Positions 1,926-35,447 of a stretch of DNA of 35,524 bases are shown in pieces. Source of the DNA: an uncultured bacterium (GTDB lineage: Bacteria; Schekmanbacteria; GWA2-38-11; J061); NCBI GenBank assembly GCA_964549305.1, contig CAZJVM010000025.1:1-35524 (forward strand), given 5' to 3'. The number at the start of each line of letters is the position of its first letter. Position 1 is the first letter of the stretch. The position numbers were made by a program, and so were the translations under genes. The notes under the pieces are model-generated. The model saw only the letters and a list, made by a program, of their open reading frames with translations. It had not been told where the DNA came from and did not search any database.

Positions 1926-2286
1926 ACTGACAAACTGCAAATGCCGCCTGTAATGAAACATGACCACAAAGAAATGTTGAGGGAAGGTTTTTGCAAACTT
2001 TCCGACTGGGCGAAGTATTTTGACTCGGGATTTTCATTCGATCTGAATTATGACCACAAATACGAACCGCAGTTGCATGAGGCATTTATCGATTATCTGA
2101 ATATTTATCTCAAATTCGTGAAGGAAGCCGAACCTATCCAAGACGAATAGATTTGCAATGAACTAATCGAATACAAAGGATATTATAAAAAATTTTATAA
2201 GGGGAAGTGACCCCGGTGCGGGTTCTGCTACTGCATTCTTCGGAAAAGAATGGGCAGAAAGACTCTTTAAAGATTTTCCTTTTTAA
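1926..2286 (+). pseudogene. C-terminal remnant of a ferredoxin-dependent bilin reductase (PebB/PcyA/HY2)-like gene
   Basis: ORF 1941-2150 gives LSDWAKYF...EAFIDYLNIYLKFVKEAEPIQDE. Reading through TAG 2148 gives ICNELIEYKGYYKKFYKG, and a +1 shift near the G run at 2201-2204 gives DPGAGSATAFFGKEWAERLFKDFPF* (2209-2286). This matches the FDBR C-terminal pattern AF.DYL..YL..V..AEP...DP.......FG.EW.E.....F.F. Confidence 0.65.
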
Positions 2287-17043: not shown

Positions 17044-18042
17044 TCAGTCGTTCTTTCCGGCAAGTTTTTCATCTTGATAAATACGAAACCCTTTGTTCGT
17101 GTAATATGTAAAAACTTTGGGATACATAAAAGCCGAAATCCGTCCCGGATTTTCCCTCTTATCGAGCATTCCTTCAAGAAAGGAAACGACGATTTTTTTA
17201 TGAAGTATATGTTTTTTGATGAAACTTTTTATGTGTCCTTTAAGAGTCGCATTCTTTACCACAAGTCCGTATTTTTCGCATAGCATCGGTATATATTCTT
17301 CCATGCCCAGAGCTTCCAGCTTTTCAATGAGTATCCCGAAGTTGTAACCGTGATTTACCTGCTGTCCGCATGCTTCCCTAAATGTATAGGGGTGATTGTG
17401 AAATCCGACGGCATCCTTGTTATACATTATTTTAAGTCCCTTTTTGTGAAGTCTGAAACCCACCTCTACATCTTCGCAACCTATTCTTTTAAATCTTTCA
17501 TCAAACATCCCGTGCGTTATGAAAAAATCTTTCTTGAAAGAGATATTTCCCGTAAAGAAATACCAGCAGGGAACTTCAATTTTATTTTCTATTTCCCTGT
17601 AGGGAAGGTCGCCCCATACTTTCATAAAAGGCGATTTCATCGCTTCTCTGTGAAGTTTGCTCTGCCCGAGTACGGCGAAATATTCCGAAGAATATTTTTC
17701 GTGGAATTTCAAATGCTCACGCAAAAAGTTTTCTGACGCAATGATGTCGTTTCCGATGATAAGCACTAAAACGGCATCTGCGTTTAAAACGCCCATATTC
17801 CTCGCCGGACCAACCCCCTTATGTTCACCCCGGAGATATTTTATTGAGATCGCTGACTTGTCTGCAATCTTTTTCACGATATTTTCGGCACTTGCTTCTC
17901 CCTTGCCGTCGTCAACTACGATGACCTCATATAATCCGGCGTCAACTGTCTGTTTCAGCAGGCTTTGCAGGCATTCTTCAAAAACTTCCACTCTTCCCAT
18001 TGTAGGAATTACAACGCTCAGTAATTTATTTTTTTCATTCAC
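17044..18042 (-). CDS. Glycosyltransferase family 2
   Basis: SVVIPT, EVIVVDDG, GVGPARNMG, FDERF...GCEDVEVGFRL. Confidence 0.9.
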   Translation of the reverse strand: MNEKNKLLSVVIPTMGRVEVFEECLQSLLKQTVDAGLYEVIVVDDGKGEASAENIVKKIADKSAISIKYLRGEHKGVGPARNMGVLNADAVLVLIIGNDIIASENFLREHLKFHEKYSSEYFAVLGQSKLHREAMKSPFMKVWGDLPYREIENKIEVPCWYFFTGNISFKKDFFITHGMFDERFKRIGCEDVEVGFRLHKKGLKIMYNKDAVGFHNHPYTFREACGQQVNHGYNFGILIEKLEALGMEEYIPMLCEKYGLVVKNATLKGHIKSFIKKHILHKKIVVSFLEGMLDKRENPGRISAFMYPKVFTYYTNKGFRIYQDEKLAGKND

Positions 18043-18060
18043 CTGCGAAAGTCTCCGTTA

Positions 18061-18924
18061 TTAAAAACCGTTAAAAGTCACCCATTCTGTATCGGTGAAG
18101 GAATCGGCATAATCGATGAAGTTGTGCCACGCGTCGAGCAGATCACTTTTTTCGCCTTTCCAGTCATCAAAAAAATACCAGTAATGATTTACGCAGATAA
18201 GAGGTTTTTCTTCTCTGCGGCATTCGTCGAATACTTTTACTGCATAATCAAAACATTCCTTTGCGTCCTTTTGAGGAAGGAAAAGGTTTACTCCGAAAAA
18301 AGCTCTTTGCCCTTTGAAAGAAGCTGTTGTGCGGGGCATAATTTTTGATGTGAGTTTTTTTCTAAGCATATATCTCCATTGTTTTATCCGGTCGATTCGC
18401 CCTTTGATATTGAAACTTTCAAAATCAGTGGAGATATTCAATCCTTTTCCAATTATAAAATCGCGCGCTTTTGCGGAAAGCATCTCATAGGGAGGGACAA
18501 CCGTTTTTACGCGAATATCCGGAAAGAGGTTTTCAAGGGTTTTTATTCCTTTGTTAAGATGAGTTTCTATGGATTGTGTATCCTCTTCAAGATACTCGCC
18601 CGTATGGTTGAAACCGTGCAGGAGGATTTCAACGAGTCCTTTGCTTAAATATTCTTTTAGAAAATTGCAAAGCGCTTCATTATCTCCCACCGGAAATTCC
18701 CTGTTTGTCCCTCTGAAAGCAGGCGGCGCGTTCAGGTCAAAATCGGAGTTTAAGATTTTTTTGATGAAATTATGTTTTACCTCTGATGTGGAAATGAATG
18801 GAATTACCGACAAAGAGACGGGATGACCTTTCTCCCAAAGACTGGCATAAACCGTCTCAAGCATTTCAGGCGCCGTGAAAAAGCTCGTGTCGTCATCTCG
18901 TACAATTATTTTCATATTTTCCAT
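18061..18924 (-). CDS. Polysaccharide deacetylase-like protein (CE4/NodB fold, DUF2334-like)
   Basis: IVRDDD, SLSVIP, EILLHGFNH, VPPYE, CVNHYW. Confidence 0.75.
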   Translation of the reverse strand: MENMKIIVRDDDTSFFTAPEMLETVYASLWEKGHPVSLSVIPFISTSEVKHNFIKKILNSDFDLNAPPAFRGTNREFPVGDNEALCNFLKEYLSKGLVEILLHGFNHTGEYLEEDTQSIETHLNKGIKTLENLFPDIRVKTVVPPYEMLSAKARDFIIGKGLNISTDFESFNIKGRIDRIKQWRYMLRKKLTSKIMPRTTASFKGQRAFFGVNLFLPQKDAKECFDYAVKVFDECRREEKPLICVNHYWYFFDDWKGEKSDLLDAWHNFIDYADSFTDTEWVTFNGF

Positions 18925-18985
18925 TATAAGGGATTAAACAGAATATGTCCTGTTTTTGAACAACAGGGCAGTGGAGATGCTTTAC

Positions 18986-19780
18986 TTAAAATGCGCCTCT
19001 TTTTGTGATGATTGCCCAGATGGTTTTAAAAATAGTTTTGATGTCAACGAGCAATGAGTGGGTTTTGACATATTCTACATCAAACTTCAGAGTGTCCTGA
19101 AATCTCAGTCTTCCTCTTCCGTTTATCTGCGCGAATCCCGTAATTCCCGGTTTTACGTCGAGTTTCGTTTTCTGCTCATCGTTATAATACTTAATCATTT
19201 CCGGAATGTCGGGACGAGGACCTACCAAATTCATATTTCCCTTTAAAACGTTTATAAAATTGGGCAATTCGTCAAGACTGGTCTGCCTTAACCATCTTCC
19301 GCATTTTGTAAGGCGGGGGTCTTCGGTTAGCTTGAAATTCATTTTGTTTATTTCTTCTTCCGTATAATCATAGGCATAAAGTTCGGGATAAAGTTCTTTT
19401 GCGTTTTCTTTCATTGTCCTGAACTTATAAAATTTGAATGGCCGCCCTCCAAGGTCCTCAGCTCTTCTGTTTCCTTTCCCCGCGATAAATGAATTGTCCG
19501 TGCCGTGCTGTGAATTTTTTTTACGGGCGTTTTTACCTCTCCTGTTATATCCGATTCGCGTCTGTCTGAATATTGCCGGTCCAGGAGAGTCCATTTTGAT
19601 TATGAGAGCGATAAGAAGGGTCAGTGGAAAGGAAAGAATAAGAATTGTTGCGGACAATAAAATGTTTATCAGACGAAAGACGGGCTTTGCGAAGAAATCA
19701 AGCGCAAATTTCTTCAAAGATGATCTTGCCTTTTTCTTCTCAGCCACAATGAATTTTCCTGTTCCATTCAATGACTTCAT
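18986..19780 (-). CDS. Priming sugar transferase (small monotopic phosphoglycosyl transferase, Bac_transf)
   Basis: IK.DSPGP..FRQ.R.G, YKFRTM, DPRLT..G..LR.TSLDELP, GPRP, KPGITG.AQ. True start may be GTG 19747. Confidence 0.92.
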   Translation of the reverse strand: MKSLNGTGKFIVAEKKKARSSLKKFALDFFAKPVFRLINILLSATILILSFPLTLLIALIIKMDSPGPAIFRQTRIGYNRRGKNARKKNSQHGTDNSFIAGKGNRRAEDLGGRPFKFYKFRTMKENAKELYPELYAYDYTEEEINKMNFKLTEDPRLTKCGRWLRQTSLDELPNFINVLKGNMNLVGPRPDIPEMIKYYNDEQKTKLDVKPGITGFAQINGRGRLRFQDTLKFDVEYVKTHSLLVDIKTIFKTIWAIITKRGAF

Positions 19781-20687
19781 CGACTGTCTCCTCGAGCGAG
19801 CGCGACGGGTTAAAATTCAAGCATTCTTTTGCTTTGGTAATATCGGCAATTGAATTTCTCAACTCTCCAACCTGTTTTTCCTTGTATATTATCTTGTTTT
19901 TATCGGACATTTTTACTCTTACAAGCTTCGCGAGCTCGTTTACCGATGTCGGTTTTTCCGTTCCGATATTAAAACTTCCATTTTTACATTCGCTTTCCAT
20001 TGCAAGAATGTTTGCCTCTGCAATGTCCTCCACGTGTATAAAGTCCCTTCTCTGTTCTCCGTCACCGAATATTTCAATAGCTTCTCCGGCGAGAATCCTG
20101 TTAATGAATATTGTCATTACGCCAACATAGGGAGTAAACTGCTGTCCCGCGCCGAAGGTGTTAAAATACCTCAGAGCAATAGATGATATTCCCATCTCCT
20201 CTCCCATAAGAAGGCAATACTTTTCAGCGGCAAGTTTCGAAATTCCGTATGGTGAAATCGGCTCGAGGGAATGGTTTTCGCTTACAGGGGCAGGTTTTTG
20301 GGAGTCGGCGTATACTGCCATTGATGATGCGTATACAATTTTTCTTACATCCGTATTTCTGCACGAATTTATTATATTTACCGTCCCCATTATGTTCGTT
20401 TCGGCGTCGGTATAAAATTCCTTCATCGATTCTCTTATGGTCACTCTTGCCGCTTCATGAAAAATTATATTGATCCTGTTTTCAGTTAAAATATCCCTTA
20501 CGAGTTTTTTGTCGAGTATATCTCCCTTTATAAATTTTACTTTCGCAGGTATATTCCCGGTCTTCCCCGTTGACAGGTCATCGATTACAAAAACTTCGAG
20601 GTCTTTATCGATGAGTTTTTTTGAAATATGCGAACCGATAAATCCCGCGCCTCCAGTAACGAGAGCTTTTTTATACAGTTTTTTCAT
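19740..20687 (-). CDS. NAD-dependent epimerase/dehydratase (UDP-hexose 4-epimerase-like)
   Basis: TGGAGFIGSH, DDLSTG, SPYGISK, LRYFNTFG, GDGEQRRDFIHV. Confidence 0.9.
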   Translation of the reverse strand: MKKLYKKALVTGGAGFIGSHISKKLIDKDLEVFVIDDLSTGKTGNIPAKVKFIKGDILDKKLVRDILTENRINIIFHEAARVTIRESMKEFYTDAETNIMGTVNIINSCRNTDVRKIVYASSMAVYADSQKPAPVSENHSLEPISPYGISKLAAEKYCLLMGEEMGISSIALRYFNTFGAGQQFTPYVGVMTIFINRILAGEAIEIFGDGEQRRDFIHVEDIAEANILAMESECKNGSFNIGTEKPTSVNELAKLVRVKMSDKNKIIYKEKQVGELRNSIADITKAKECLNFNPSRSLEETVDEVIEWNRKIHCG

Positions 20688-20719
20688 AATAATTGTTTAT
20701 AAAAAAAATTATGTTTTTG

Positions 20720-21667
20720 CTAAAAATAATTTTTACAGCTCAATATTCTTTCAGGGGAAACAATCGAATAACTCAGGTCAACTTCACTGTCAACTACCGT
20801 ATTGCGAAAAATAAGGGAATTGGAAACCGTAATTGGTTTTTTTATAACAACATTATCGCCCACTACGCAATTTTCAATTTTTGCGTCATTCAACTGTACG
20901 TCCTTTCCCAGAAGATTCTCAGAGGGCATTGTCTTTAAAAGCTCTATGTTGCACCTGAGAAGGTCGTGAGGCGATGTGAGGTTTATGTCGGCTTTGATTG
21001 CGCGCGAAGGGACTACAGAAAAACCGAAATCGATTAATATCTGTATGGAATCGGTCAATTCAAACTCATTGCGCATTGCGGTCCTGGGAGTCCTTCTGAT
21101 TGCGTCAAATATATGCGTGTCAAACAGGTATATTCCGCATCCCTTTAAATTCGTTGTCAAATATCTCGGTTTTTCTATTACCTGTATAACCTTGTCCGAG
21201 GAGTCAAGAAGTACAACAAAATTTTTTCTGATTTCCTCGGGTTTTTTTTCGTCAATTACTGCGATAACGGCATTGTTGCCGTCTCTGTCCATAAGTTCAA
21301 CCATTTCGCTCAAATTGTTTGATATAAAGAATATATCTCCCAGAAAAAGGAGAAACTTCGATGAAATATAAGGTTCGATTTTCCCTACTGCGTGGGCGAT
21401 TCCCAGATATTCCCTCTGCTCCACATACTTTATATTTACCCCGAATTTGCTCCCGTCGCCCATATACCTGTCAATCTGATGGCTTAAATGACCCACCACG
21501 AGTATGATGTCTTTAATTCCCGCTTCTTTCATTATATTAATCTGATGCGCTATAAGTGGTTTGTTGCAGATTGGCAGAAGGCTTTTTGGTATTTCCGTGC
21601 TGAATGGCGACATCCTTTTTCCCCTGCCTGCCGCCATTATGACTCCTGTTAATTTTTCTTCTTTCAT
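20720..21667 (-). CDS. Glucose-1-phosphate thymidylyltransferase-like nucleotidyltransferase (long form)
   Basis: MAAGRGKRM.P...PKSLLP, LGIAHAV, LGDIF, IEKP, RNEFELTDSIQ, short C-terminal LbH region. Confidence 0.85.
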   Translation of the reverse strand: MKEEKLTGVIMAAGRGKRMSPFSTEIPKSLLPICNKPLIAHQINIMKEAGIKDIILVVGHLSHQIDRYMGDGSKFGVNIKYVEQREYLGIAHAVGKIEPYISSKFLLFLGDIFFISNNLSEMVELMDRDGNNAVIAVIDEKKPEEIRKNFVVLLDSSDKVIQVIEKPRYLTTNLKGCGIYLFDTHIFDAIRRTPRTAMRNEFELTDSIQILIDFGFSVVPSRAIKADINLTSPHDLLRCNIELLKTMPSENLLGKDVQLNDAKIENCVVGDNVVIKKPITVSNSLIFRNTVVDSEVDLSYSIVSPERILSCKNYF

Positions 21668-21685
21668 TTGATTTCGCAGTTAGGA

Positions 21686-22810
21686 TTATTTATTAACTGA
21701 ATTATAAACTTCATTGTAAACTTCAAGAGTCTTTCTTGCCGTATTTTCCCAGGTAAAAAGCGATGCCCTTGCCAGTCCTTTTTCTATTAATGACTCACGG
21801 ACTGTTTTGTCGTTTATTGCCAGGGCGCATTTTTCGGCGATGTCCTCAATTTTGTAAGGGTCAGCGGTAATTGCCGCATTGCCAACAACTTCAGGCAGGG
21901 AAGTGACATTTGAAGTTACAACGGGAATGCCGCATGCCATTGCCTCGAGGGGAGGGAGTCCGAATCCTTCAAAAAGCGAAGGGAAAACGAACAAATCCGC
22001 TCCGTTGTATATATGCGGAAGATCGGCATAATCTATGTGACCCAATTCGATTACGTCATTTTGGAGTCCGAGGTTTTTAATATCATCTGTAACTCCCTGT
22101 GATTCCCACATCTTTCTTCCTACAAGAAGAAGTTTTTGGCTGATACCCATTTTTTTTTTCATTATCTGAAATGAATCAATGAGCCTTTTGGTGTTTTTCC
22201 TTGCCTGAAGTTTTCCCACATAGAGGATGTAACTGTCGTCGATGCCGTATTTCTTTAAAACAGCATTAACTTTGTCTTTTTCTTTAATCGGACGGTAACA
22301 TTTATCTACTCCCGAATAGATAACCGATATTTTTTCAGGTTCTATTTTAAAAAACTTGATTATGTCCTTTTTGGTTGTCTCGGAAACGGAGATTATTTTC
22401 ACGGCATTTTTAATGCCTTTCCCTAAGAGGAAATTTGCCCGCAGACGAATTTTTGCAGGAAAATATTCAGGATGAATATATGTGCAGAGGTCGTGAACAG
22501 TAAGTATATATTTTTTTGGAGAAACAAGTGAAGGCGCCATACATACGTGAAGAAGATCAATGTTTTCATTATGGACCTCAAAGGGCAGTCCCACGGAAAA
22601 TCGAATCAATTTTGAACGGGGATTTACCGGTTTTGCGGTAAAATTTGTATGGGTTTTCAACATTTCAGACAGACCCTCAACAGATGAACAGAATATTCTG
22701 TACTGATTTTTATTGTCTGTGTCCATAAGCCCTTTGACAAGGCCTAATTCATAGGTTTCAACTCCCCCTCCCTGTGTTCCTATTCTTTCAGCAAAAATTC
22801 CAATATTCAT
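21686..22810 (-). CDS. Glycosyltransferase family 4
   Basis: [44 protein letters not shown]. Confidence 0.93.
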
Positions 22811-22828
22811 TCTTGTTCGTATCTCTTG

Positions 22829-24241
22829 TCATCGGGGTTTTTTTGCCGGGATCTTTTTATCCGACTTTCTCATTACATTTACGGCATAAAGGCTTCTTAG
22901 CTTGGAGTAATAGCGAAAGTTTATTAAACTGCGATCTATTAATTCTATGAAAGCCCTTTTAGGATTGTATTTTATGAATACATTAAATCCGAAATACTGC
23001 CTTATGCGCTTAAGTTTCGAAAATGGAATAGTAGGGTGTTTAACATTTGTTGACGAATAGTAGGAGTTTAAAGTTATTGTTTTGTCCAGCCATCCGTTTT
23101 TTTCGCACAAATCATAAAGGTAGGTGCCTTTATACGCGGTAAAAATTGACACAGCAAGAAAATCGGGCTGAATTTTTCTGTTAATTTCTATGGTTTTTCG
23201 GATGTTTTCAACATTTTCCTGCGGAAGCCCGATCATATTGTATGTATATAGATTCATTCCGTATTTCTTTATGAGACGGCTTCCTTCGATAATCTGCTCA
23301 TCGGTGATGCTTCTTTTAAGAATATGTTTTCTTATTTCAATATCTCCGGATTCCACGCCGATTGATACTCTGTCGCACCCTGCTTCTGAAAGATATTGGC
23401 ACATCTCTTCGTCAATGTTGTTAATTCTTGCGTTGATATGAAAAGGGAGATTTACTTCCTTTTTGAGTTTTTCACATAACTCTTTCACGCGCGATTTTTT
23501 AAGCGTAAAAGTATCATCAAAAAACTCCACTCTTTTTATGTCGTATTTTTTTACCGCGTTTTTAATCTCGTCAATTATGTAATCAGTATTTCTGTAACGC
23601 ACATAACGTCCTTTTTTCTCGTAAAGGCCGGAATAAGTGCGGTTTATACAATATGTGCATTGGTACGGACAACCGCGTGAGCCGAGAAAGGATGCTACCA
23701 TATTGTGATTTTTAAGGTATCTCGGATAATCGTAAATATCCAAATCAAGATAAGGGAGTGAGTCGAGGTCCTGTATTAAGGGCCTGAGGTCATTTTTTAT
23801 GATATTTCCCTTTTTTTTGAACCATATATTTCTGATATCCGTTCTCTTTTCTCCTCTCTCGAGGGATTCCGTAAGTTCGACTATCGCCTCTTCGCCTTCT
23901 CCCAGGCAAATCATATCGAAACATTCTTCCTTTATGCTTTCTTCGGGGGCGATAGTGGGGTGGATGCCTCCTATAATTGTGGGAATTTGGAACTTCTCTT
24001 TAATCAGTTTCGCGACGTACTTTGAATAGGCAAAGTTGCAGGAGAGGGAAGAGAATGCAATCAATTGGGGATTGAATTTTTTCACCTTATTAAGAATCTG
24101 CTCGTCTTTCAGGCCGAATGTGGTGTCTATGAGGTCAACTTCGTGTCCGGCTTTTTTAAGCACCGCGGATAATATGGCAATCCCGATTGATATGTCCTTC
24201 GGGTGCTGTACCACATTTCCGTAAACTAACTGAACTTTCAT
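22829..24241 (-). CDS. Cobalamin-binding radical SAM protein (class B-like)
   Basis: N-terminal B12-binding domain (GGIHPT, GEGE), SRGCPYQCTYC, FFDDTF, GVESG, MIGLP. Confidence 0.92.
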   Translation of the reverse strand: MKVQLVYGNVVQHPKDISIGIAILSAVLKKAGHEVDLIDTTFGLKDEQILNKVKKFNPQLIAFSSLSCNFAYSKYVAKLIKEKFQIPTIIGGIHPTIAPEESIKEECFDMICLGEGEEAIVELTESLERGEKRTDIRNIWFKKKGNIIKNDLRPLIQDLDSLPYLDLDIYDYPRYLKNHNMVASFLGSRGCPYQCTYCINRTYSGLYEKKGRYVRYRNTDYIIDEIKNAVKKYDIKRVEFFDDTFTLKKSRVKELCEKLKKEVNLPFHINARINNIDEEMCQYLSEAGCDRVSIGVESGDIEIRKHILKRSITDEQIIEGSRLIKKYGMNLYTYNMIGLPQENVENIRKTIEINRKIQPDFLAVSIFTAYKGTYLYDLCEKNGWLDKTITLNSYYSSTNVKHPTIPFSKLKRIRQYFGFNVFIKYNPKRAFIELIDRSLINFRYYSKLRSLYAVNVMRKSDKKIPAKKPR

Positions 24242-24253
24242 ATTGTTCTTCTT

Positions 24254-25153
24254 TTATTTTTTAAATTCGTTTAAAAACAGATGAAATAATGTCCTCACAG
24301 TCAAAGTGACGAAAGAAAATAATTTCATAGGCGAAAAAGTACCACTCGCATTGTGCTTGCTATAATAGTTATAAGCTCCTCTGTGAAAGTCAATTATCAT
24401 TTTAGGATTTTTCCTTCTTTCGGGTTGATACCTTTCATAGTGTATAACCTTTGACGAAGGGATGCAGAATATTTTGTAACCTTCATCTTTTGCTCTTTTG
24501 CACCAATCCACATCAGTCCAATAAACGAAAAAATCCTCATCCATAAACTTCAACTTACTTACTACCTTTTTTTTCATCATCATACAAGCGGCTGAAACAT
24601 AGTCAACTTCAAAAGGGTTGGTTGTGTCTATGTTGTCAATGCACATAAACTTTGCGGATATGGGATTGTTCGGAAATATTCTGGTAACGAGTGCTCGCCT
24701 TCCGAAAAGCCCGCTTAAAAGGTTTGGGAATCGTCTCGCGGTTTCCTGAATACTTCCGTCTTCATTGAAAACCCTTGCCCCCACGACTCCGACATCTTCA
24801 TTTTTACGGAGAAAATCAACGAGATTTTGAAGCGCGCGGGGTTTGACTTCTGTATCGCTGTCGAGAAAAAGAATATAATCTCCGCTGATTTTTTTTAGAA
24901 TCTCGTTTATTGCCCGGCTTAATCCCACATTTTCCTTATTCTTCATTAAACGGACTTTGGGAAATTTGGTTTCCACCATATGGGCGCTTCCGTCATTTGA
25001 GTTGTTGTCGAATACGAATATTTCCGTTTCAAGGGAATTTTTTTTGGCAGATACGGATTCAAGGCATTTCTCGATTTCCTTGCAGTTATTGTAATTAACA
25101 ATTGCTATTGATAACATTTTTCTATCGTATTTTGAAAATATGAGTTTGTCCAA
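24254..25153 (-). CDS. Glycosyltransferase family 2 (WbbL/rhamnosyltransferase-like)
   Basis: SIAIVNYN, DNNSNDGS, LDSD, SAACM, MDEDFFVYWTDVDWC. Start may be ATG 25117. Confidence 0.9.
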   Translation of the reverse strand: MDKLIFSKYDRKMLSIAIVNYNNCKEIEKCLESVSAKKNSLETEIFVFDNNSNDGSAHMVETKFPKVRLMKNKENVGLSRAINEILKKISGDYILFLDSDTEVKPRALQNLVDFLRKNEDVGVVGARVFNEDGSIQETARRFPNLLSGLFGRRALVTRIFPNNPISAKFMCIDNIDTTNPFEVDYVSAACMMMKKKVVSKLKFMDEDFFVYWTDVDWCKRAKDEGYKIFCIPSSKVIHYERYQPERRKNPKMIIDFHRGAYNYYSKHNASGTFSPMKLFSFVTLTVRTLFHLFLNEFKK

Positions 25154-25233
25154 TAAGAAAAAATAGTTCGATTCTAATAGGGGGAAAAAACCATAATTCC
25201 ATTTATTTGCGTTTTATATATGTTGCAGTTTTT

Positions 25234-26163
25234 TTAGCTTCGCACGGTGTTAATAAACTTTTTCAATGCTGTCAATCTTGTTTTGCTTTTTTCATCTTTA
25301 TAGATAAGATATTTAAGGCGGGCAAGGGTATATCTTGAAAGAAGTCCGGAAAAATATAGTTTTTCGGCGATAAACGCGCCGGAAGGACTGTTGAAGTTCA
25401 AAAGATAGTCTCTGTATGAAAGTCTGTTTTTCTTTTCCGCTTTTTCGCCAACCTTTAAAACGGATTGATTTTCAAAGTGAATTACTTTTGCCTGCGGTAA
25501 AAATATTATTTTGTAACCCTTTTTCTTAATCCTGTAACACCATTCCTGGTCTTCAAAATAAAGAAAGAAACTTTCATTCAACGGGCCTGTTTTATCGAAA
25601 ACTTTATGGCGCAGCATTATGCAGGCACCGGATACCCAGTCAACTTCAAGGGGTTTTTGTTTTTTAGAGCGCATATAAAGTCCTCTGATTCGCGAAGATG
25701 AGGGAAATAACTTTGTCAATCCGGAAACCTCGCAAAAGATAACGAAAAGCTCAGGAAAGGACCCTGCAGTACTCGGATGAATGTTTCCTTTCTCATCTGT
25801 AAGGGAAGGCCCCACTACGCCGGTGTCCGAATGGTTTTCAAGATAATCAGTCATTTTGTCTACGGCGCCTTCGGTAAGAAGGGTGTCAGGATTCAAAAGC
25901 ATTATGTTTTTCCCTTTACACCGTGACAAGGCGAGATTATTGCCTGCGGCAAATCCGAGGTTTTTTTCGCTTTTTATAATTTCAACATTATTGTGCGTCT
26001 TTTCCAATCGCGCAATGCTATCATCTGTAGACGCGTTATCAGTGACAATAATTTCATAATCTATCCCTTTTACGGTGTTTTTTATGGAATCTACGCATTG
26101 TGTTAAAAGCGCGCCTGTATTCCAGTTCACAATGATTATTGACAGGTCCTTATCAAAATTCAT
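25234..26163 (-). CDS. Glycosyltransferase family 2 (WbbL/rhamnosyltransferase-like)
   Basis: SIIIVNWN, DNASTDDS, NLGFAAGNN, LNPD, VDWVSGAC, FFLYFEDQEWC. Confidence 0.9.
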   Translation of the reverse strand: MNFDKDLSIIIVNWNTGALLTQCVDSIKNTVKGIDYEIIVTDNASTDDSIARLEKTHNNVEIIKSEKNLGFAAGNNLALSRCKGKNIMLLNPDTLLTEGAVDKMTDYLENHSDTGVVGPSLTDEKGNIHPSTAGSFPELFVIFCEVSGLTKLFPSSSRIRGLYMRSKKQKPLEVDWVSGACIMLRHKVFDKTGPLNESFFLYFEDQEWCYRIKKKGYKIIFLPQAKVIHFENQSVLKVGEKAEKKNRLSYRDYLLNFNSPSGAFIAEKLYFSGLLSRYTLARLKYLIYKDEKSKTRLTALKKFINTVRS

Positions 26164-27641
26164 TTTAAGATCTCTGCTGAAACAGGTTTGATATCGTCAG
26201 TCTCTTCATCTTCTATTTTTTTCATTGCAACCAGAGTTCCCCCGTAAAGAAAGAGAATCGTCTGGATCGCTTCTTCTCCGAATAAGTCGATTCCCATATG
26301 AATTGCCGCGCCGCAGAATGAGGAAAGAATACCTATGGTTATTACTGTCATAAGATTATCGCCCGCGCGCATCACTTTTATTCCGGCGGAGAGGTTTTTT
26401 GAGTAAAAGATTAGCAGAAACAGTAATCCAATTAATCCCACTTCCGTTGCAACAATAAGATAGTAATTGTGAACGGGATATCCTATGGTAACATCTTTCG
26501 TATCATAATCGGGAAGATGAATAACCGATGTATTCAACCCGAATCCCAAAACAGGATGGTCTTTGAGCATTTTCAATCCCACTTTGCTCATTTCTATTCT
26601 TTGTTCAAATGCTCCCTTTCTTGTGTTCATAAATTTTTCTATTTTCCCCGTAAGAAAGAAGGACGATATTATCGCGATGAGGCAAACGGTTATAAAAGCT
26701 TCTTTGGGGAGAATTCTCTTCCATATCAAAAGCAGGAAAGCGACGGTAAGCGCGATTGCCGTGCCAATCAATCCGCCTCTGGAAAAAGTAAAGTAAAGCC
26801 CTATGCTCGCGAGGATGAATGCCGAGGCATATAAAATAATTTCGTACCACTTCCTTCTGATAACCGCCAGGCAAAAAATAAGGGGGAGCATCAGCTCGAA
26901 ATACATTGCTTCGATGTTGTGCGGACCAACTGTGCCGCTTCCCCTCATCGTGTCGTCATCGAGTCCGTAACCTACGGTTAACCCCTGAGGTTTATCTTCG
27001 ATGATGTTGCTGGCGTAAGAATATCCCGTAAGACTTACGGAAATCTGGTATTTGTATTCCAGAATGCATATTGCCCCTTGAATTATTGCGCCTATTGCAA
27101 GGCAGATTACGAGTGTTTTTAAATCTTTTTTGGATTTAACGGTGTTCGTTATAAAAATATAGAAGAGCAGAAACTTGATTAATCGCAGTAATTCAAAAAT
27201 GCTGTATGAGAGATTTATCGAATTTACGAATGAAAGAAGCGACCATATAATAAAAAGCGTAAGATAGACTGCCGGTTTGGGAAAAAAGAAACTTTCTCTC
27301 CTAGTGCATAACCTGAATCCCCATATTGCAAAAAGAATGAAAAGAATTATATCGCTGAATAAAATCCGCAATACAGGAGGCGAACCTGAAGGCACTCCGT
27401 ATCTGCCCATTACCGACTCCATAAACTCCCTGCTTCCCAATATTTTGGGAGCTACGAGAGGTATTGCGAGAATAAATATTATAAACCAGTATCGCTTTCT
27501 GTCTTTTGCGAAAATTTGGGAGATAAATACAACGACTCCCGTTATTCCCGCGATTGCAACGGAAAGTTTGAAGTCCATTACAAGGAGTATGATGAAGGCG
27601 AATAGGGCGCTTATCGCCGTTGTAAGCGTAAAATTGAACAT
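26160..27641 (-). CDS. O-antigen ligase/polymerase family membrane protein (Wzy_C)
   Basis: Multi-TM protein, R..GT.G..N, TFSRGG, HPVLGFG, VHNYYLIVATEVGLIG. Confidence 0.85.
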   Translation of the reverse strand: MFNFTLTTAISALFAFIILLVMDFKLSVAIAGITGVVVFISQIFAKDRKRYWFIIFILAIPLVAPKILGSREFMESVMGRYGVPSGSPPVLRILFSDIILFILFAIWGFRLCTRRESFFFPKPAVYLTLFIIWSLLSFVNSINLSYSIFELLRLIKFLLFYIFITNTVKSKKDLKTLVICLAIGAIIQGAICILEYKYQISVSLTGYSYASNIIEDKPQGLTVGYGLDDDTMRGSGTVGPHNIEAMYFELMLPLIFCLAVIRRKWYEIILYASAFILASIGLYFTFSRGGLIGTAIALTVAFLLLIWKRILPKEAFITVCLIAIISSFFLTGKIEKFMNTRKGAFEQRIEMSKVGLKMLKDHPVLGFGLNTSVIHLPDYDTKDVTIGYPVHNYYLIVATEVGLIGLLFLLIFYSKNLSAGIKVMRAGDNLMTVITIGILSSFCGAAIHMGIDLFGEEAIQTILFLYGGTLVAMKKIEDEETDDIKPVSAEILK

Positions 27642-27688
27642 TCTCTTACCGGTTTGTGCAGTAGTAATACATTATAAAAATGTATTAT

Positions 27689-28411
27689 CTAAAGTCGTTT
27701 GTAAATAAATCTCGGAATAAAATGTTTTCTGCGGTTTATAATCGCACCCAGTAAATTGGCGTTTCTTTTTTCAAGATTTAACCTTACCTTTTCAACAATC
27801 TGACGGCGTGTTTTATGTGCCTGAATAACAAGAATGGTGCCGTCAACATAAGGGGCGATAAAGAGCGAATCGGGATAATTATTCAAAGGCGCGCTGTCAA
27901 TGATGATAAAATCATAATCTTTTTTCAGTCCGTCATTGAGAATCGTTTTTATTTTATCTCCATTAAAACCCGGAGCAAGTTTGTCTCCTTTTTTCATAGC
28001 GGGAGCAATGTAAAGATTGTCTATGTCAGTTTTTCTTACGGTTTGTCGAAAATCGACTTCCTTGTCCGCAGTGAAGCAGTCTTTTACTACCGGTGTATCA
28101 GATTCGGCGAATCGGGAAAAGAAAGATGACCTGAAATTCATATCGATTAAAAGCACGGATTTGTTGTCTGTTTTCGACAATGTTTTTGCAAGGTGCAGAG
28201 CGATGAATGTGGTTCCTTCCCTGTGTAATGATGAGGTGAGCAGAATAATTTTAGGTGATTTGCCTCTATTGATATTTTCCCCGTCGCCTTCTGACATATT
28301 ATGCAATACGATTCCGTTTGCCAGTTGATAGAGCGAGTTGGAAACATCGCCGGGAAGGGATTTTCTGAAATATTTTTCCTTTAAATTTATCGTATCCATT
28401 TTGTTTGGCAA
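27689..28411 (-). CDS. CpsD/CapB-family BY-kinase domain with degenerate Walker A
   Basis: TSSLHREGTT (no Lys), LLIDMNFR, YDFIIIDSAP, DGTILVI, LLGAIIN. Confidence 0.85.
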   Translation of the reverse strand: MPNKMDTINLKEKYFRKSLPGDVSNSLYQLANGIVLHNMSEGDGENINRGKSPKIILLTSSLHREGTTFIALHLAKTLSKTDNKSVLLIDMNFRSSFFSRFAESDTPVVKDCFTADKEVDFRQTVRKTDIDNLYIAPAMKKGDKLAPGFNGDKIKTILNDGLKKDYDFIIIDSAPLNNYPDSLFIAPYVDGTILVIQAHKTRRQIVEKVRLNLEKRNANLLGAIINRRKHFIPRFIYKRL

Positions 28412-28428
28412 ATTTCTTTCATAGATAA

Positions 28429-29859
28429 TTAAAACCGGTATTTTCTTTTTACTTCCCTGATGGAAGTGATGACCGGTAAATTGAGATAATTTTCCACATC
28501 TTCAACATTTTTAATCGAGTGGTCGAGATATTCGGAATAGAATGCCAGGGCAATTCCGCCGAATAATCCCATTAACGCGCCTATGATTAATACGAGTTTT
28601 TTCCGGGGTTTTGTGGGTTTATAGGGAGGATATGAATAACTGATAACTCTTACGTTAGCTATCTTTGCCGAGTCCATTACTTTCGATATTCGCGACTCTT
28701 CGAGCTTTTTCAAATAAAGTCTGTAATTGTTTTCAGTGATATTTAAGTTTCTCTTTATCCTTAAAAGCTCAATTTCCTTGTCTCCGATTTTTTTGAATTC
28801 CTCTTCACTCGATTTCAACTCATCCTCAATTGCTCTACCTTTTTCCTTCAATGCGGCAAGACGTACCTGCGCGTCGAGAAGTTTGTCTTCAAGTTTTGGT
28901 ATGATTATGGGAAATGTTGGGTTTAACAGGGAGTTGTTGTCGGTTGCAGTGACGTCATCATTGCCTCTGTTTTCAACCGGCAATGAATCCGAGATTTGGG
29001 ATTTCAATTCCTCGACCTCTTTTTCGGATTTGTAAATATCTCCCATGTTTTCCTGAAGAGAAGTTTTAAGTTTTGAAATTCTTTCCACAATAGTTTTTTT
29101 CTGATTCTCCGTAGAGATGATTCCCCATTCCTTTCTGAATTTCTGCAATTCCCTTTCTCTTATGGAAAGCTGGTCTTTCAGATTTACGGATTCCGATTTG
29201 AAAAGCTCCAAAACTCCCGGAGTTTTGTATAACTCCGTGCGGTAATCCATATAAAAGCGAATCAGGGTATTGACAACTGTCGACGCGATGACGGGATTTC
29301 CCCACATTAATTCTATCTTTATGACATTTGAATATTTTACCGAGCTTACATCGAGACTTTTCTGAATGAGATAAACCGCCGCATCGTGATCGCTTAATTT
29401 TTTTAACAGTCCGATAGCATATAAAGAGTTATAGAAGGTGTCCTTTACTTTGTTGACTGCTTTGACTGCGTAATATTTTACGAGTTTCAGTAATGTTTCC
29501 GGTTTTGGTGAATCGGGAAAGAGGTAATCCAGTCCAAGTTCGTTTACTGTCTTTTCAACAAGAAAATTGTTGTTTATTATTTCGATTTCCGAATTGACCT
29601 GCTCTTTCGTAACTCCGAAGGAGAGTACCTGCTGTGATCCCGTTAATACTGATGGCACTGAAGAGTTTTCTCTGCCGAGTTTCACCAAAAGGGTTGCCTC
29701 TGCTGTATATTTTTGAGGCCAAACATAAAGTCCGAGGGCGACAAAGATTATGGTTAAAACAAAAAAAGTCAGTATCTTCAGCTTTTGTCTGAAAAAACTG
29801 TTCAACAGGTCGCGTGTGGATATCTGTTTTTCCGGGTTTTGATTGTTTGACATTCGCAC
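28429..29859 (-). CDS. Polysaccharide co-polymerase / chain-length determinant (GumC/Wzc periplasmic part)
   Basis: N-terminal TM, KYTAEATLLV, coiled coils, Pro-rich PPYKPTKP before the C-terminal TM, EYLDHSIK...VE..L.LPV. Confidence 0.9.
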   Translation of the reverse strand: MRMSNNQNPEKQISTRDLLNSFFRQKLKILTFFVLTIIFVALGLYVWPQKYTAEATLLVKLGRENSSVPSVLTGSQQVLSFGVTKEQVNSEIEIINNNFLVEKTVNELGLDYLFPDSPKPETLLKLVKYYAVKAVNKVKDTFYNSLYAIGLLKKLSDHDAAVYLIQKSLDVSSVKYSNVIKIELMWGNPVIASTVVNTLIRFYMDYRTELYKTPGVLELFKSESVNLKDQLSIRERELQKFRKEWGIISTENQKKTIVERISKLKTSLQENMGDIYKSEKEVEELKSQISDSLPVENRGNDDVTATDNNSLLNPTFPIIIPKLEDKLLDAQVRLAALKEKGRAIEDELKSSEEEFKKIGDKEIELLRIKRNLNITENNYRLYLKKLEESRISKVMDSAKIANVRVISYSYPPYKPTKPRKKLVLIIGALMGLFGGIALAFYSEYLDHSIKNVEDVENYLNLPVITSIREVKRKYRF

Positions 29860-31158: not shown

Positions 31159-31188
31159 TTGACATCCCACCATACTATTGCTAATTAT
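31159..31188 (+). promoter_or_regulatory. Possible sigma-70 promoter of the HemF-like/AOR operon
   Basis: TTGACA (31159-31164), 17 nt, then TAATTA(T) preceded by TG (extended -10). SD GGGGAGG before ATG 31219. Confidence 0.45.
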
Positions 31189-31218
31189 TTTTCATACTTT
31201 TAAAGGGGAGGGAACCTA

Positions 31219-32004
31219 ATGCTATCCAAGAACGATGTTGTTGATTTTCTGCAGAATATGATTGGCGAATACGAAAAAATCTGCGCAACTTATAATCCGT
31301 CATCGCAAATATCCAAAAAATCCTTTGATACTCCAATGGGACGCCTCGACCTGAATCGCTCCGAAGGTGAAACATTTGACAAGGCGACCTCGATTTACTG
31401 CGACCTTAAAATAGAAACCCCTCCCGTGTTAGCCGAGGAGTTGGGTCAGGAGGGAAGCACTGCAGATGCAATGGTGCTCGAGATTCACTTTTTCCCGGTT
31501 AATCCACATATCCCGAAGGCATACATCGAACTTCGCGCAAACATCACGGACAAGGTTGTCCTTGCCGGAGGCACCGATATAAAACCCTACTTTGATAATG
31601 AAGAGGATATAAAATATTTTGCCGACGCAATGAAAGAGCTTTGCGCACGCCATGGAAAAAAATATGATGAACTTCAGAAGGTGAGAGCTGATTTCTTCAA
31701 ATCAAAATATTCCGGAGAGAAGGTGGGAAGTCACGCGGGTATCTATTCTTTCCATCTTGACGCCGAGGATTTTGGATTCTACAAGGATTTGGGAGAAACG
31801 TACATCACACTTGTCAAAGAGCTCGTTGAAAAGAGGAAAGGGCAGGAATATTCAAAAGAGGATATGGAAGATAAGCTTAAACAGCACGGCGAGTGGGTGC
31901 AATGGACACTTCTCGAGGATGACGGTACCATATTCGGGCTTAAGAAGGGAATTCCCGCAGAAGCATTGCTCGGGGCTATTCTTCCGCCCCATGCAAAATT
32001 TTAA
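31219..32004 (+). CDS. Divergent HemF (oxygen-dependent coproporphyrinogen III oxidase)-fold protein
   Basis: Collinear with HemF motifs: G.TFDKA, P.NPHIP....LR, GG.D..PY...EED, KRK...Y, L..D.GT.FGL..G...E.LL..LPP. Several substrate-binding Arg/His residues are replaced. Confidence 0.8.
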   Translation: MLSKNDVVDFLQNMIGEYEKICATYNPSSQISKKSFDTPMGRLDLNRSEGETFDKATSIYCDLKIETPPVLAEELGQEGSTADAMVLEIHFFPVNPHIPKAYIELRANITDKVVLAGGTDIKPYFDNEEDIKYFADAMKELCARHGKKYDELQKVRADFFKSKYSGEKVGSHAGIYSFHLDAEDFGFYKDLGETYITLVKELVEKRKGQEYSKEDMEDKLKQHGEWVQWTLLEDDGTIFGLKKGIPAEALLGAILPPHAKF

Positions 32005-32025: not shown

Positions 32026-33141
32026 ATGAGTATAAAAGCAGAATTTGTGAATTATGTTAAAAACGAAGTAGGAATTCCCCTCGTTGGAGTTGTCGCGCCT
32101 GATGACTATCCCGCGGAGGATTATGAAAGAATCGCCCACGTCCAGAAAATATTCGCAAAAGCGACACCTCTTTCAGGCGGTATCGATACGGTATTTCAAC
32201 CCCGTGATTTTCTTCCCGAGGCAAAGTCTGTAATCATTACCGCTTCACCTGCCTATATCAAAAAAGACTTCACATTCGAAGAATGCAAAAAAGACCTGAT
32301 AGGTACGGCAGAGGCAACACACGTCAATACGAGTTATTTACAGACTAACGCTGAACGGGGCGCAAAGGTTTCTGACTTTTTCAAGGACAGGGGATATCAG
32401 TGTTATTCTCTTAATGCCGGTTCATTCCCTATGAAATTAATGGCATCAAAATGCGGAGTCGGTCATTACGGCAAGAATGCAATCATACAGCATCCCGATT
32501 ACGGCGCCTGGATTTCCCTTTCAGGATATGTTACCGACGCGGAGCTTGAACCGGACTCACCCCTTGAAAAAGACTGCGGCGAGTGTGACCTTTGCCAAAA
32601 AGCTTGTCCTACGGATGCCCTTAGAGAAGCTTACAGATGCGATATGACGAAGTGTATTGATTTTCATCTTGGACATAACAAACACTTTGTCCCTCCGGAG
32701 ATTCGCGATAAATGCGGAAATCTGCTCGGTGAGGGATGCACTGCCTGCAGGGATGCCTGCCCTAAAAATAAAAATCTTTCACCTATTGAAGGTTTTACTG
32801 TGCCTGATGAACTGCTTCACCCGAAAATTCTGGAAATTATGAACATAAGCGACGAGGAATGGGACAACGGATTTGCAATGACCCTTATGGGTTTTTTCCT
32901 TATGGATAAAAAATACCTGCTCAGAAATGCCGCAGTAGGACTTGGCAATTTTCAAGATGAGCGCGCAGTGGGAGTCCTTGGTGAAATGCTTCACGCGGGA
33001 CCCGACGAAGTGCGGGGTTATGCGGCGTGGGCACTGGGAAAGATAGGAGGAAAAAAATCCAAAGAACTTTTAAATTCTGCATTGAATAATGAGGAAGATG
33101 AAGATATAACCGGTGAAATAAAATTTGCACTTGATATGTAA
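32026..33141 (+). CDS. QueG/reductive-dehalogenase-superfamily cobalamin, 2x[4Fe-4S] reductase with C-terminal HEAT repeats
   Basis: P..FLPEAKSVI, A..CGVG.YGKN......YGAW, CGECDLCQKACP, KC, GCTACRDACP, RNAAVGLGN...VRGYAAWALGKIG. Confidence 0.85.
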   Translation: MSIKAEFVNYVKNEVGIPLVGVVAPDDYPAEDYERIAHVQKIFAKATPLSGGIDTVFQPRDFLPEAKSVIITASPAYIKKDFTFEECKKDLIGTAEATHVNTSYLQTNAERGAKVSDFFKDRGYQCYSLNAGSFPMKLMASKCGVGHYGKNAIIQHPDYGAWISLSGYVTDAELEPDSPLEKDCGECDLCQKACPTDALREAYRCDMTKCIDFHLGHNKHFVPPEIRDKCGNLLGEGCTACRDACPKNKNLSPIEGFTVPDELLHPKILEIMNISDEEWDNGFAMTLMGFFLMDKKYLLRNAAVGLGNFQDERAVGVLGEMLHAGPDEVRGYAAWALGKIGGKKSKELLNSALNNEEDEDITGEIKFALDM

Positions 33142-33177: not shown

Positions 33178-33663
33178 ATGCCAAATGTTATTCATTTTAA
33201 ACCCAAGAAGTGTACGCTTTGCAGACGTTGCGAAGCCGCCTGTTCAAACAAACATTTCAATGTTTTTACCAGTTTTTACTCAAAGATTAAGGCAGTGGAG
33301 TTTGAAGATGAGCAGTCATATTTTCCTGTTACCTGTTTTCAGTGCGATGATGCGCCCTGCATTTCCGCCTGCCCCACAAGTGCGATTGTAAAAGATTCCG
33401 AGACGGGAATCGTTACAATCAATGAAGACGAATGTACCGGTTGCGGAAACTGCATAGACGAATGCCCCATAAAACATATTTTTCCCTATGACGATTTTGG
33501 ACACGCCATTAAATGCGATTATTGTGGTGGTGACCCTGAGTGTGTGAAATTCTGCAAGGACAGAGCAATTGAATGGAGAGAGATAACTCCTGAAGAGAAA
33601 GAGGGAAGGGACCAGCTTTTTACAACTCTTGCAGATAAATTGAAGGAGGTTAAGGAATTATGA
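33178..33663 (+). CDS. 4x[4Fe-4S] electron-transfer subunit (AOR small subunit/DmsB-like)
   Basis: 16 Cys in four groups: CTLCRRCEAAC, CFQCDDAPCISAC, CTGCGNCIDEC, CDYCGGDPECVKFC. ATGA overlap with the AOR gene. Confidence 0.92.
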   Translation: MPNVIHFKPKKCTLCRRCEAACSNKHFNVFTSFYSKIKAVEFEDEQSYFPVTCFQCDDAPCISACPTSAIVKDSETGIVTINEDECTGCGNCIDECPIKHIFPYDDFGHAIKCDYCGGDPECVKFCKDRAIEWREITPEEKEGRDQLFTTLADKLKEVKEL

Positions 33664-35447
33664 AAGGGTGGACAGGAAAAATATTAAGAATAAATCTAAC
33701 AGACGGCAGTAATAAAGTTGAAGACCTTGATAAGGGTTTGGCAAAAAAATACATAGGCGGACGTGGTATCGGTTCGAAGATGCTTCTTGATGAAGTTGAC
33801 CCTACGATTGATCCTCTTTCACCTGATAACAAGATGTTCATCTTTACGGGACCACTTACGGGTACAGGCGCGCCTTGTGCAGGGCGTTATATGGTTATTA
33901 CAAAATCACCTCAGACAGGTTCTATCGCCTGTTCAAACTCAGGCGGTTACTGGGGACCTGAACTTAAGGCGGCAGGTTATGACGGAATAATCCTTGAAGG
34001 CAAGGCGGAAAAGCCAACTTATATCTGGATTGAAAACGACAAAGTCGAACTGAGGGATGCAGGCGACATCTGGGGTCAGGATACCCACGAGACAACGAGG
34101 TCGGTTAAAGCAAAAACAGACCACAGGGCAAAGGTTTCCTGCATAGGTCCTGCAGGAGAAAAGCTTGTCCTTATGGCGGCAATCATAAATGACACTAACC
34201 GCTCTGCGGCAAGGTCGGGAGTGGGCGCAGTAATGGGTTCAAAGAACCTCAAGGCGATTGCGGTGCGCGGGACAAAGGGTTTTTCAGTAGCAGACGGTTT
34301 CAGGGATGCAAGCCTTGAAATGACCGGACTCTTCAACACTGATGTTGCTAAGGGATATGGCTATTTTGGCACTTCAATGGCAGTGGACTACTGCAATGCT
34401 GTGGGAATCTTTCCTGCGAATAATTATCGTGAAGGCGTGTTTAAAGCTGCACCCAATATAAACGGACAGGCAATAAGGGATAAAATCCTTGTAAGGAAAA
34501 GAAGTTGCCACGGATGCGTGCTTGGATGCGGCAGAGTAAGCAGGGTGACTGAAGAAGGTTTTGAAGGATACGGTGAAGGCCCCGAATATGAAACAATTTA
34601 TGCATTCGGGTCAACGTGCAACATTGACAACATCAATGCCATTGCAAAAGCAAATTTCATCTGCAACGAACTCGGAATGGACAGCATCTCTGTTGGAGTG
34701 ACAATTGCTACGGCAATGGAACTTTATGAAAAGGGCTTAATTACAAAAGAAGATGTGGGAATGGAGCTTAAATTCGGCGATGCAAAGGCAATGGTTGAAC
34801 TTACGAGGCAAACGGGACTTCGCGAAGGGTTCGGCGACCTGCTTGCATTAGGAAGCTATCGTCTTGCGGAAAAATACGGTGTGCCTGAAATTTCAATGAC
34901 ATCGAAAAAAATGGAAATCTCAGCTTATGACCCTAAAGGTTCAAAGGGAATGGCGCTTACCTATTCCACCAACCCTCGCGGAGGCGACCACACAAGAGGC
35001 GCGACTGTCTTTGCAGAAGTTTTCGGAATACCGAAGAAGGTGAAGTCAAAGATAGAAGACGGTAAAGGCGAGCTTGCAAGAGATTGTCAGAACTTAAATG
35101 CCGCAATTGATGCAACAGGCGCCTGTATGTTCGCTACTGCCGTTGTTCAGCACGAACCTTTTGCTAAAATCTTAAGCGCCGCAACTGGCGAGGATTTTTC
35201 CTATGAAGATTATGTCAAAATAGGCGAGAGGATTTGGAATATAGAACGGATTTTCAACAACAAGGCAGGATTTGGCAGAAAGGATGATTCCCTTCCTCCG
35301 AGAGTAATAAGCGAACCCCATACTGAAGGTCCGTCTGCGGGACTGACTGTCGATTTTGAAAGAATGCTCAATGATTACTATTCGGCACGAGGTTGGGATG
35401 AAAACGGTGTTCCCACGAAGGAGAAGCTTGCTGAGTTAGGTATATAA
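33660..35447 (+). CDS. aor: Aldehyde:ferredoxin oxidoreductase (tungstopterin AOR family)
   Basis: GGRG.G, KSPQTG, AARSGVGAVMGSKNLKA, CHGCVLGC, GPEYET, CNELGMDSIS, DATGACMF, YY..RGWDENGVP. Confidence 0.95.
   Translation: MKGWTGKILRINLTDGSNKVEDLDKGLAKKYIGGRGIGSKMLLDEVDPTIDPLSPDNKMFIFTGPLTGTGAPCAGRYMVITKSPQTGSIACSNSGGYWGPELKAAGYDGIILEGKAEKPTYIWIENDKVELRDAGDIWGQDTHETTRSVKAKTDHRAKVSCIGPAGEKLVLMAAIINDTNRSAARSGVGAVMGSKNLKAIAVRGTKGFSVADGFRDASLEMTGLFNTDVAKGYGYFGTSMAVDYCNAVGIFPANNYREGVFKAAPNINGQAIRDKILVRKRSCHGCVLGCGRVSRVTEEGFEGYGEGPEYETIYAFGSTCNIDNINAIAKANFICNELGMDSISVGVTIATAMELYEKGLITKEDVGMELKFGDAKAMVELTRQTGLREGFGDLLALGSYRLAEKYGVPEISMTSKKMEISAYDPKGSKGMALTYSTNPRGGDHTRGATVFAEVFGIPKKVKSKIEDGKGELARDCQNLNAAIDATGACMFATAVVQHEPFAKILSAATGEDFSYEDYVKIGERIWNIERIFNNKAGFGRKDDSLPPRVISEPHTEGPSAGLTVDFERMLNDYYSARGWDENGVPTKEKLAELGI

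Follow-up and report, generated by a model that had tools for sequence, protein, structure and literature searches.

A divergent HemF-fold protein family with an altered substrate pocket, encoded repeatedly beside tungsten aldehyde:ferredoxin oxidoreductase genes

Proteins like the one encoded near the end of contig CAZJVM010000025.1, from an uncultured member of the Schekmanbacteria (assembly GCA_964549305.1), are named coproporphyrinogen III oxidase (HemF, CPOX) in databases, and the question that this locus raises is whether the protein is that enzyme or something else built on the same fold. We analyzed the whole contig stretch of 35,524 nucleotides (the window), where the gene is the first of four consecutive genes on one strand; the features are:

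31205..31212, + strand, Shine-Dalgarno-like purine run GGGGAGGG, read from the sequence, 6 bases 5' of the ATG
31219..32004, + strand, divergent HemF/CPOX-fold protein of 261 aa, intact open reading frame of 261 codons with an ATG start
32026..33141, + strand, QueG/reductive-dehalogenase-family protein with two 4Fe-4S motifs and HEAT repeats, 21 bp 3' of the HemF-like gene
33178..33663, + strand, 4Fe-4S dicluster ferredoxin-like protein (Pfam Fer4_7/Fer4_11)
33660..35447, + strand, aldehyde:ferredoxin oxidoreductase (AOR/WOR family) large subunit of 595 aa (PF02730 287 bits, PF01314 473 bits)

The spacings of 21 bp and 36 bp, followed by a 4-base overlap between the dicluster gene and the AOR start, suggest that the four genes may be co-transcribed, and the dicluster protein is likely the small subunit of the AOR; the contig ends 77 bases past the AOR gene. 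A candidate promoter at 31159-31188 is given no weight because the scan gave 8 sites versus 6.2 +/- 2.8 in shuffled sequences. The order HemF-like, QueG-like, same-clade AOR is repeated in L037 (same genus) and L038 (same family), and a QueG-like gene also follows the HemF-like gene in L063. The QueG-like protein of the window matches the solved structure 5D08 at E 2.5e-43 and stays under the QueG cut-off (TIGR00276, 145 bits versus 200). A second QueG-like paralog in the genome (L158) is 33% identical to it; both deviate from solved QueG at motifs that we take to be catalytic, so that assigning L158 as the true QueG is unsupported, both paralogs appear non-canonical, and they are possibly cobalamin reductases of another substrate. 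Elsewhere in the window, a 69-aa fragment at 1941-2150 (+ strand), 3' of a flavodoxin-like gene, matches a bilin-reductase-like profile at E 4.6e-16 and is probably a remnant. A polysaccharide synthesis and export cluster, recognized by eye upstream on the opposite strand (18000-29859, -; glycosyltransferases, chain-length and O-antigen-ligase-like genes, a radical SAM gene), appears unrelated to the HemF-like gene.

The HemF-like protein, in which no signal peptide or extra domain was seen, matched Pfam PF01218 at 94.4 bits (cut-off 31.8), yet failed the HemF equivalog NF003727 with 103.1 bits against a cut-off of 297. Its structure model (pLDDT 95.8) has the CPO-type alpha/beta/alpha fold (Z 32.0 and rmsd 2.0 over 252 residues to Leishmania CPO 3EJO), and Foldseek concurred with TM 0.84-0.86 to HemF/CPOX. 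Bilin reductases and the chlorophyll-catabolite reductase RCCR, with which the sequence-only reading had asked for a structural comparison, share the fold at a greater distance (Z 12.8-20.3; PebA 20.3, PcyA 17.7, RCCR 2ZXK 15.9), and no FDBR or RCCR Pfam domain was matched at E<=0.1. The homolog search returned 105 clusters that were 42-88% identical to the query (itself set aside), of which 90 entered the alignment and 15 were left out as fragments. An exhaustive search found an identity gap between this subfamily and both the other divergent paralogs (33-35%) and canonical HemF (near 30%), and the subfamily formed its own clade with support of 100/100, in agreement with the earlier proposal of a separate HemF-derived group. 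Its named loci come from Schekmanbacteria and deltaproteobacterial/Thermodesulfobacteriota MAGs, and a few carry other labels; the closest named homolog, 88% identical, is labelled Candidatus Schekmanbacteria. Source names accompany 26 of the 105 matches and all 26 read "coproporphyrinogen III oxidase", exactly the mislabelling by automated pipelines that had been foreseen. No fused form of 511-2000 residues was found among 7999 scored candidates, which is weak negative evidence; what looks like a HemF-like/AOR fusion in L018 is garbled where the two parts meet and reads as a frameshift in that assembly, and the ESM Atlas gave HemF-domain clusters only, with no other lead. The protein has the HemF fold but departs from HemF at defining residues, and should therefore not be annotated as HemF. 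At minimum, systematic mis-annotation credits these genomes with an aerobic heme step that they very probably lack.

All six altered HemF motifs of the sequence-only reading are present, starting at residues 88, 101, 164, 222, 234 and 246, and each aligns with its proposed HemF counterpart in solved enzymes from bacteria and Leishmania. E88, Y102, E104, R106, D120, R156, E233 and D234 occur in 90/90 aligned homologs, and in the same columns 80 canonical-type rows have S (60), H (63), N (63), R (69), D (78), C (61), Y (61) and D (80), respectively. Because these eight residues are kept throughout, the pocket changes are family traits and not noise. In human CPOX numbering, transferred through motif offsets to the alignments of the bacterial and Leishmania enzymes, the replacements are S244->E, H258->Y, N260->E and Y399->E in 90/90, R332->V in 88/90 (V169; R in 79/80 canonical rows), R389->H in 84/90 (H223; R in 79/80), R401->E/D in 72/90 (position 235, never R; R in 80/80) and R413->P in 87/90. 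The equivalents of R262, D282 and D400 (R106, D120 and D234) are retained in 90/90. The catalytic-position Asp and the single Arg that had been said to remain are thus Asp400 and Arg262, but Asp282 is kept too. Likewise, the supposed loss of most substrate arginines includes the Arg328 equivalent in the window's protein, but that residue is kept in 62/90 homologs. The accessible part of a study of human CPOX (10.64898/2026.07.02.735896) describes S244, H258, N260, D282, R332 and D400 as intolerant to substitution, R328, R389, R401 and R413 as tolerating change, added negative charge in the 400-404 loop as damaging, and T256, the position of K/R100 below, as an active-site residue.

Summed over 19 active-site positions, charge was +3.74 in canonical HemF (range 2 to 6, n=68) and -2.29 in the subfamily (range -4 to -1, n=90; window's protein -4), counted by sequence position and not from pocket electrostatics; the ranges do not overlap, also when 16 long or eukaryote-type rows are included. 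The subfamily has conserved basic gains as well (K/R100 in 90/90, R156 in 90/90, K/R238 in 76/90 and an inserted H172 in 89/90), and adding positions 153, 156 and 172 brought its mean to -0.56 and the window's protein to -3. Therefore, of the charge-reversed pocket that had been proposed, the flip in net charge over the 19 positions stands, but basic residues that may compensate are partly there at the family level and the subfamily pocket reads as closer to neutral than "reversed". Nor need the acids point to the neutral or cationic ligand proposed in the sequence-only reading, since they may serve to donate protons and not to balance the charge of a cation. The protein is also acidic overall (net -13).

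Taken against known systems, the family shares with HemF/CPOX the whole fold, 22-25% identity and the equivalents of R262, D282, D400, G402 and G406, and differs in the eight replacements listed above, a one-residue His insertion, a length shorter by about 40 residues, its separate clade and the absence of heme-synthesis context. It shares with the bilin reductases PcyA, PebA, PebB, PebS and HY2 (2D1E, 2X9O, 6QWQ, 2VCK, 6KME) the fold (Z 14.8-20.3), and its acids may, by alignment, fall at their His88, Asp105 and Asp220/256/206 positions, but it is only 10-16% identical to them, groups with HemF, keeps HemF's R262 and occurs in a host without heme oxygenase; to RCCR (2ZXK, Z 15.9) the likeness is one of fold, at 9% identity. 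The Schekmanbacteria proteins that Rockwell et al. (2023) placed between bilin reductases and RCCR (PMC10151467, accessible part) correspond to the 18 bilin-reductase-like paralogs described below and are another branch from the HemF-like genes. In sum, the subfamily is a variant of a known fold, whose reaction is probably new.

Among the neighbors of the family, AOR genes recur. An AOR lay within 600 bp of the HemF-like gene at 26/95 loci, corresponding to 12/42 clusters at 90% identity and 7/27 at 80% identity (9/27 if the distance is widened to 3.5 kb), while the AOR-adjacency background in the host genome is about 2% (binomial p 8e-7, or 2e-3 when four events only are counted, kin not being independent). 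Same-strand AOR neighbors span four AOR clades and a fifth clade lies tail to tail. However, no AOR was found within 3.5 kb in 18/27 clusters, among them 10 of the 16 whose flanks extend 1 kb or more in each direction, and the recurring neighbors of these AOR-free clusters (MFS transporter, UPF0047, nitroreductase, hexapeptide protein) have no common theme. Tungsten AORs are associated with low-potential metabolism, and it is this context that leads us to infer that the HemF-like protein may act independently of O2, as the sequence-only reading had supposed. Bilin-reductase-like genes lie near a subfamily member in 4/27 clusters. In the host genome 6/9 HemF-fold genes have an AOR or a bilin-reductase-like gene no more than 3.5 kb away, compared with a background of 6.4%, and bilin-reductase-like genes are not enriched near AORs (1/17). 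A conserved run of bilin-reductase-like, DUF2284, ferredoxin-like, AOR and HemF-like genes was observed in L017, L086-L089 and L129. Five carrier MAGs, two of which supplied rows of the bilin-reductase-like profile, had 20-31 AOR, 2-5 HemF-like and 14-21 bilin-reductase-like matches each. Among 81 genomes of one carrier's phylum (thresholds 1e-8 and 1e-25), both families were present in 3 (the centre genome and two more), which may be close kin, and neither in 78. AOR-rich genomes without the family were common in this sample, and AOR expansion was therefore rejected as a marker of carriers.

The host genome, listed as 100% complete, contains nine PF01218-type (HemF-fold) genes, none at canonical score, 18 matches to the bilin-reductase-like profile (one of them a fragment), 12 tungsten AORs and four UbiD matches. 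The bilin-reductase-like alignment matches PebB, HY2, PebA, PcyA and PebS, and RCCR more weakly. The other eight HemF-fold paralogs lack E104, and those on contigs C30, C3 and C79 retain more HemF residues. Three HemE-like proteins, 46-47% identical and all under the cut-off (L154 on C7, L155 on C12, L156 on C19), retain the Asp but lack the arginine motif and have a Trp-bearing motif in place of the C-terminal His (residue roles from the accessible part of PMC3510221); HemE-like genes of similar kind occur in two relatives. HemB is present, and no HemN or AhbD above cut-off, no AhbA/B domain and no cytochrome bd was found in the host genome; heme oxygenase (PF01126) was found in 0/5 genomes of the phylum. 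The only ferrochelatase-domain match is the weak one of L157 (C2:22077-23534, 485 aa, N-terminal hydrophobic segment, 28.5 bits), and weak matches like it occur in all 5 genomes of the phylum. With no recognizable HemN, AhbA/B, AhbD or HemH, the host's route to heme is unexplained. The host encodes heme-copper oxidase subunit I (cbb3 type by eye) and so cannot be called a proven strict anaerobe. PF01218 matches number 2-9 in each of the 5 phylum genomes, one of which, 99% complete, has such a match without a HemE-like gene.

We tentatively favor, at less than an even chance, a reading in which the HemF-scaffold protein has come to work in the manner of the ferredoxin-dependent bilin reductases, with the AOR as its source of electrons. 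The substrate would be a tetra- or oligopyrrole derivative poor in carboxylates, with roughly a single propionate for R106 to bind; the neighboring tungsten AOR would oxidize an aldehyde and load the electrons onto ferredoxin, and these electrons would reduce the substrate in one-electron steps with protonation via E88/E104/D234. This would likely take place where pigments derived from chlorophyll, bilins or heme are degraded or remodelled at low oxygen. In bilin reductases, the substrate receives its protons and is reduced by way of the residues at PcyA His88, Asp105 and Asp220/HY2 Asp256 (PMC13446030, Table 2, in its accessible part). In PDB alignments these PcyA donor sites are found five before one conserved proline, five past the next one and in a C-terminal DP motif. 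A profile alignment with 22 bilin-reductase-like proteins put E88, E104, D120 and D234 on the columns of PcyA His88, Asp105, the DxxP Asp and Asp220, where canonical HemF has S at 88 and N at 104. Four profile alignments gave the E88/E104/D234 register with a probability of 43-73%, and two MAFFT alignments agreed with it at 88, 104 and at 120; in the second of them some rows are shifted by one column at 234, and column 104 is D/E in 8/11 bilin-reductase-like rows. However, a profile of the subfamily only was not significant against the bilin-reductase-like set (probability 1.6%), and the active sites of CPO and bilin reductases are placed on opposite sheet faces (PMC13446030, accessible part), which conflicts with the mapping of E88/E104 to His88/Asp105; the proton-donor register is therefore a lead of moderate strength. 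The reductase reading is consistent with the repeated AOR linkage, the ferredoxin-like neighbors and the large bilin-reductase-like sets in carriers, with invariant acids gained and most carboxylate-binding residues lost while the Asp400, Asp282 and Arg262 equivalents are retained, and with the parallel loss of the arginine motif in the three HemE-like paralogs. It fits less well with a protein of net charge -13, not an obvious ferredoxin partner, with the lack of heme oxygenase for bilin supply (0/5 genomes), with the absence of E104 from the other eight paralogs, and with the 18/27 clusters without a nearby AOR and the many AOR-rich genomes without the family.

Pocket positions carry five carboxylates that never vary and two histidines that hardly do (E88/E104/D120/E233/D234 with H172/H223), a set that would also suit an acid-catalysed non-redox or metal-using protein that demetallates, hydrolyses or tautomerises a pigment-derived ring, or that binds a divalent metal for that purpose. 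Some HemF enzymes reportedly depend on a metal (PMC10548856, accessible part), and a redox partner is not beside every member. We regard this explanation as unlikely, though of some weight, since the recurring neighbors are redox enzymes and the acids appear to coincide with proton-donor positions of the reductases.

A HemF-type oxidative decarboxylase acting on another, less charged pyrrole substrate, with low O2 or a different acceptor, would account for the invariance of the R262, D282 and D400 equivalents, and the heme-copper oxidase subunit I and the unexplained route to heme are in line with it. It has a precedent for a changed substrate in tolyporphin HemF2, a HemF-like enzyme that decarboxylates rings C and D of protoporphyrinogen IX (PMC10548856, accessible part). 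HemF2 resembles the present family as a HemF paralog with an altered pocket and, in its case, an altered substrate, but it has remained an oxidative decarboxylase and belongs to a cyanobacterial biosynthetic cluster. On the other hand, the equivalents of the substitution-intolerant S244, H258, N260 and R332 are replaced, 72/90 members carry D/E at 401 within the loop where negative charge is damaging (10.64898/2026.07.02.735896, accessible part), and the tungsten AOR neighbors suggest low-potential metabolism, so that we consider such a decarboxylase rather unlikely.

A further explanation is a non-catalytic ligand carrier or accessory subunit, from which the AOR would receive a hydrophobic aldehyde or product. 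The tight spacing to the AOR start (17-25 bp in L013 and L011, a 4-base overlap in L020) and the starts of three paralogs, which look by eye like signal peptides and would suit binding proteins, favor this role; the eight invariant polar pocket residues (90/90) are more typical of catalysis, and many members have no AOR partner at all, while the partners that do occur fall into four clades, which makes a carrier quite doubtful. Complex prediction for the L013 pair (AOR residues 6-645 and the HemF-like protein, as alignments) scored 0.15 against a mark of 0.32 and allows no call either way. That the protein is a divergent but true coproporphyrinogen III oxidase, as in the database labels, is very improbable, because the fold and Pfam match, the 26 source names and the presence of HemB without HemN above cut-off are set against 103 rather than 297 bits, charge ranges without overlap, HemE in 0/5 carrier MAGs at E<=1e-40 (completeness not given), HemE-like proteins without substrate arginines in the genome, no heme-synthesis gene among the recurring neighbors, and better candidates in the C30, C3 and C79 paralogs. 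The remaining share of probability goes to a non-pyrrole ligand, for example an N-heterocycle.

Should the reductase reading hold, the family would connect the oxidases of this fold with its reductases and would supply candidate enzymes for pigment alteration that is now usually taken as spontaneous diagenesis (PMC8695116, accessible part). As to descent, a long, fully supported branch splits canonical HemF from the divergent proteins in the unrooted tree. When the tree was rooted on bilin-reductase-like proteins, canonical HemF nested among the divergent ones with support of 95/95 and 97/93 in two row sets; when monophyly of the divergent group was put to an AU test as the alternative, p was 0.43 for one row set and 0.048 for the other, and long branches meet at the root. 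These trees allow that the aerobic HemF arose from the divergent HemF-like radiation. A wider view, which we consider doubtful, is that the whole set represents an undescribed low-oxygen tetrapyrrole metabolism and that the HemF-like radiation is the O2-independent stock of the oxygen-dependent HemF. Its enzymes would be the dozens of proteins of the HemF and bilin-reductase fold, the arginine-poor HemE paralogs, UbiD decarboxylases and tungsten AORs, and its chemistry would reduce, decarboxylate and open pigments from chlorophyll, heme or bilin. Rockwell et al. argued that all known enzymes of the CPOX/RCCR/FDBR fold are directly or indirectly O2-dependent and hence postdate oxygenic photosynthesis (PMC10151467), and in the accessible part of that paper we found no mention of divergent HemF-like proteins. 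An O2-independent stock, if true, would contradict the O2 dependence published for every enzyme of the fold, and an AOR-tied HemF-fold family in hosts without detected heme oxygenase or HemE makes the claim of Rockwell et al. testable with one soluble 30-kDa protein. The words coproporphyrinogen, porphyrin, bilin and chlorophyll are all absent from the main text of the 2026 WOR classification, a literature search whose reach excluded most subscription papers found no description of this HemF-like family, and a phage search with a bilin-reductase-like protein gave no match.

We also observed that the HemF-fold paralogs C8:36450-37322, C82:3835-4749 and C66:10267-11253 start with apparent signal peptides (by eye). 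The C8 paralog adjoins a TonB-receptor-like gene, twin-arginine-like proteins and a bilin-reductase-like gene, and the C66 paralog sits between a UbiD gene and an AOR. The AOR genes on C29, C80 and C86 adjoin small flavin-binding split-barrel-like proteins, again by eye.
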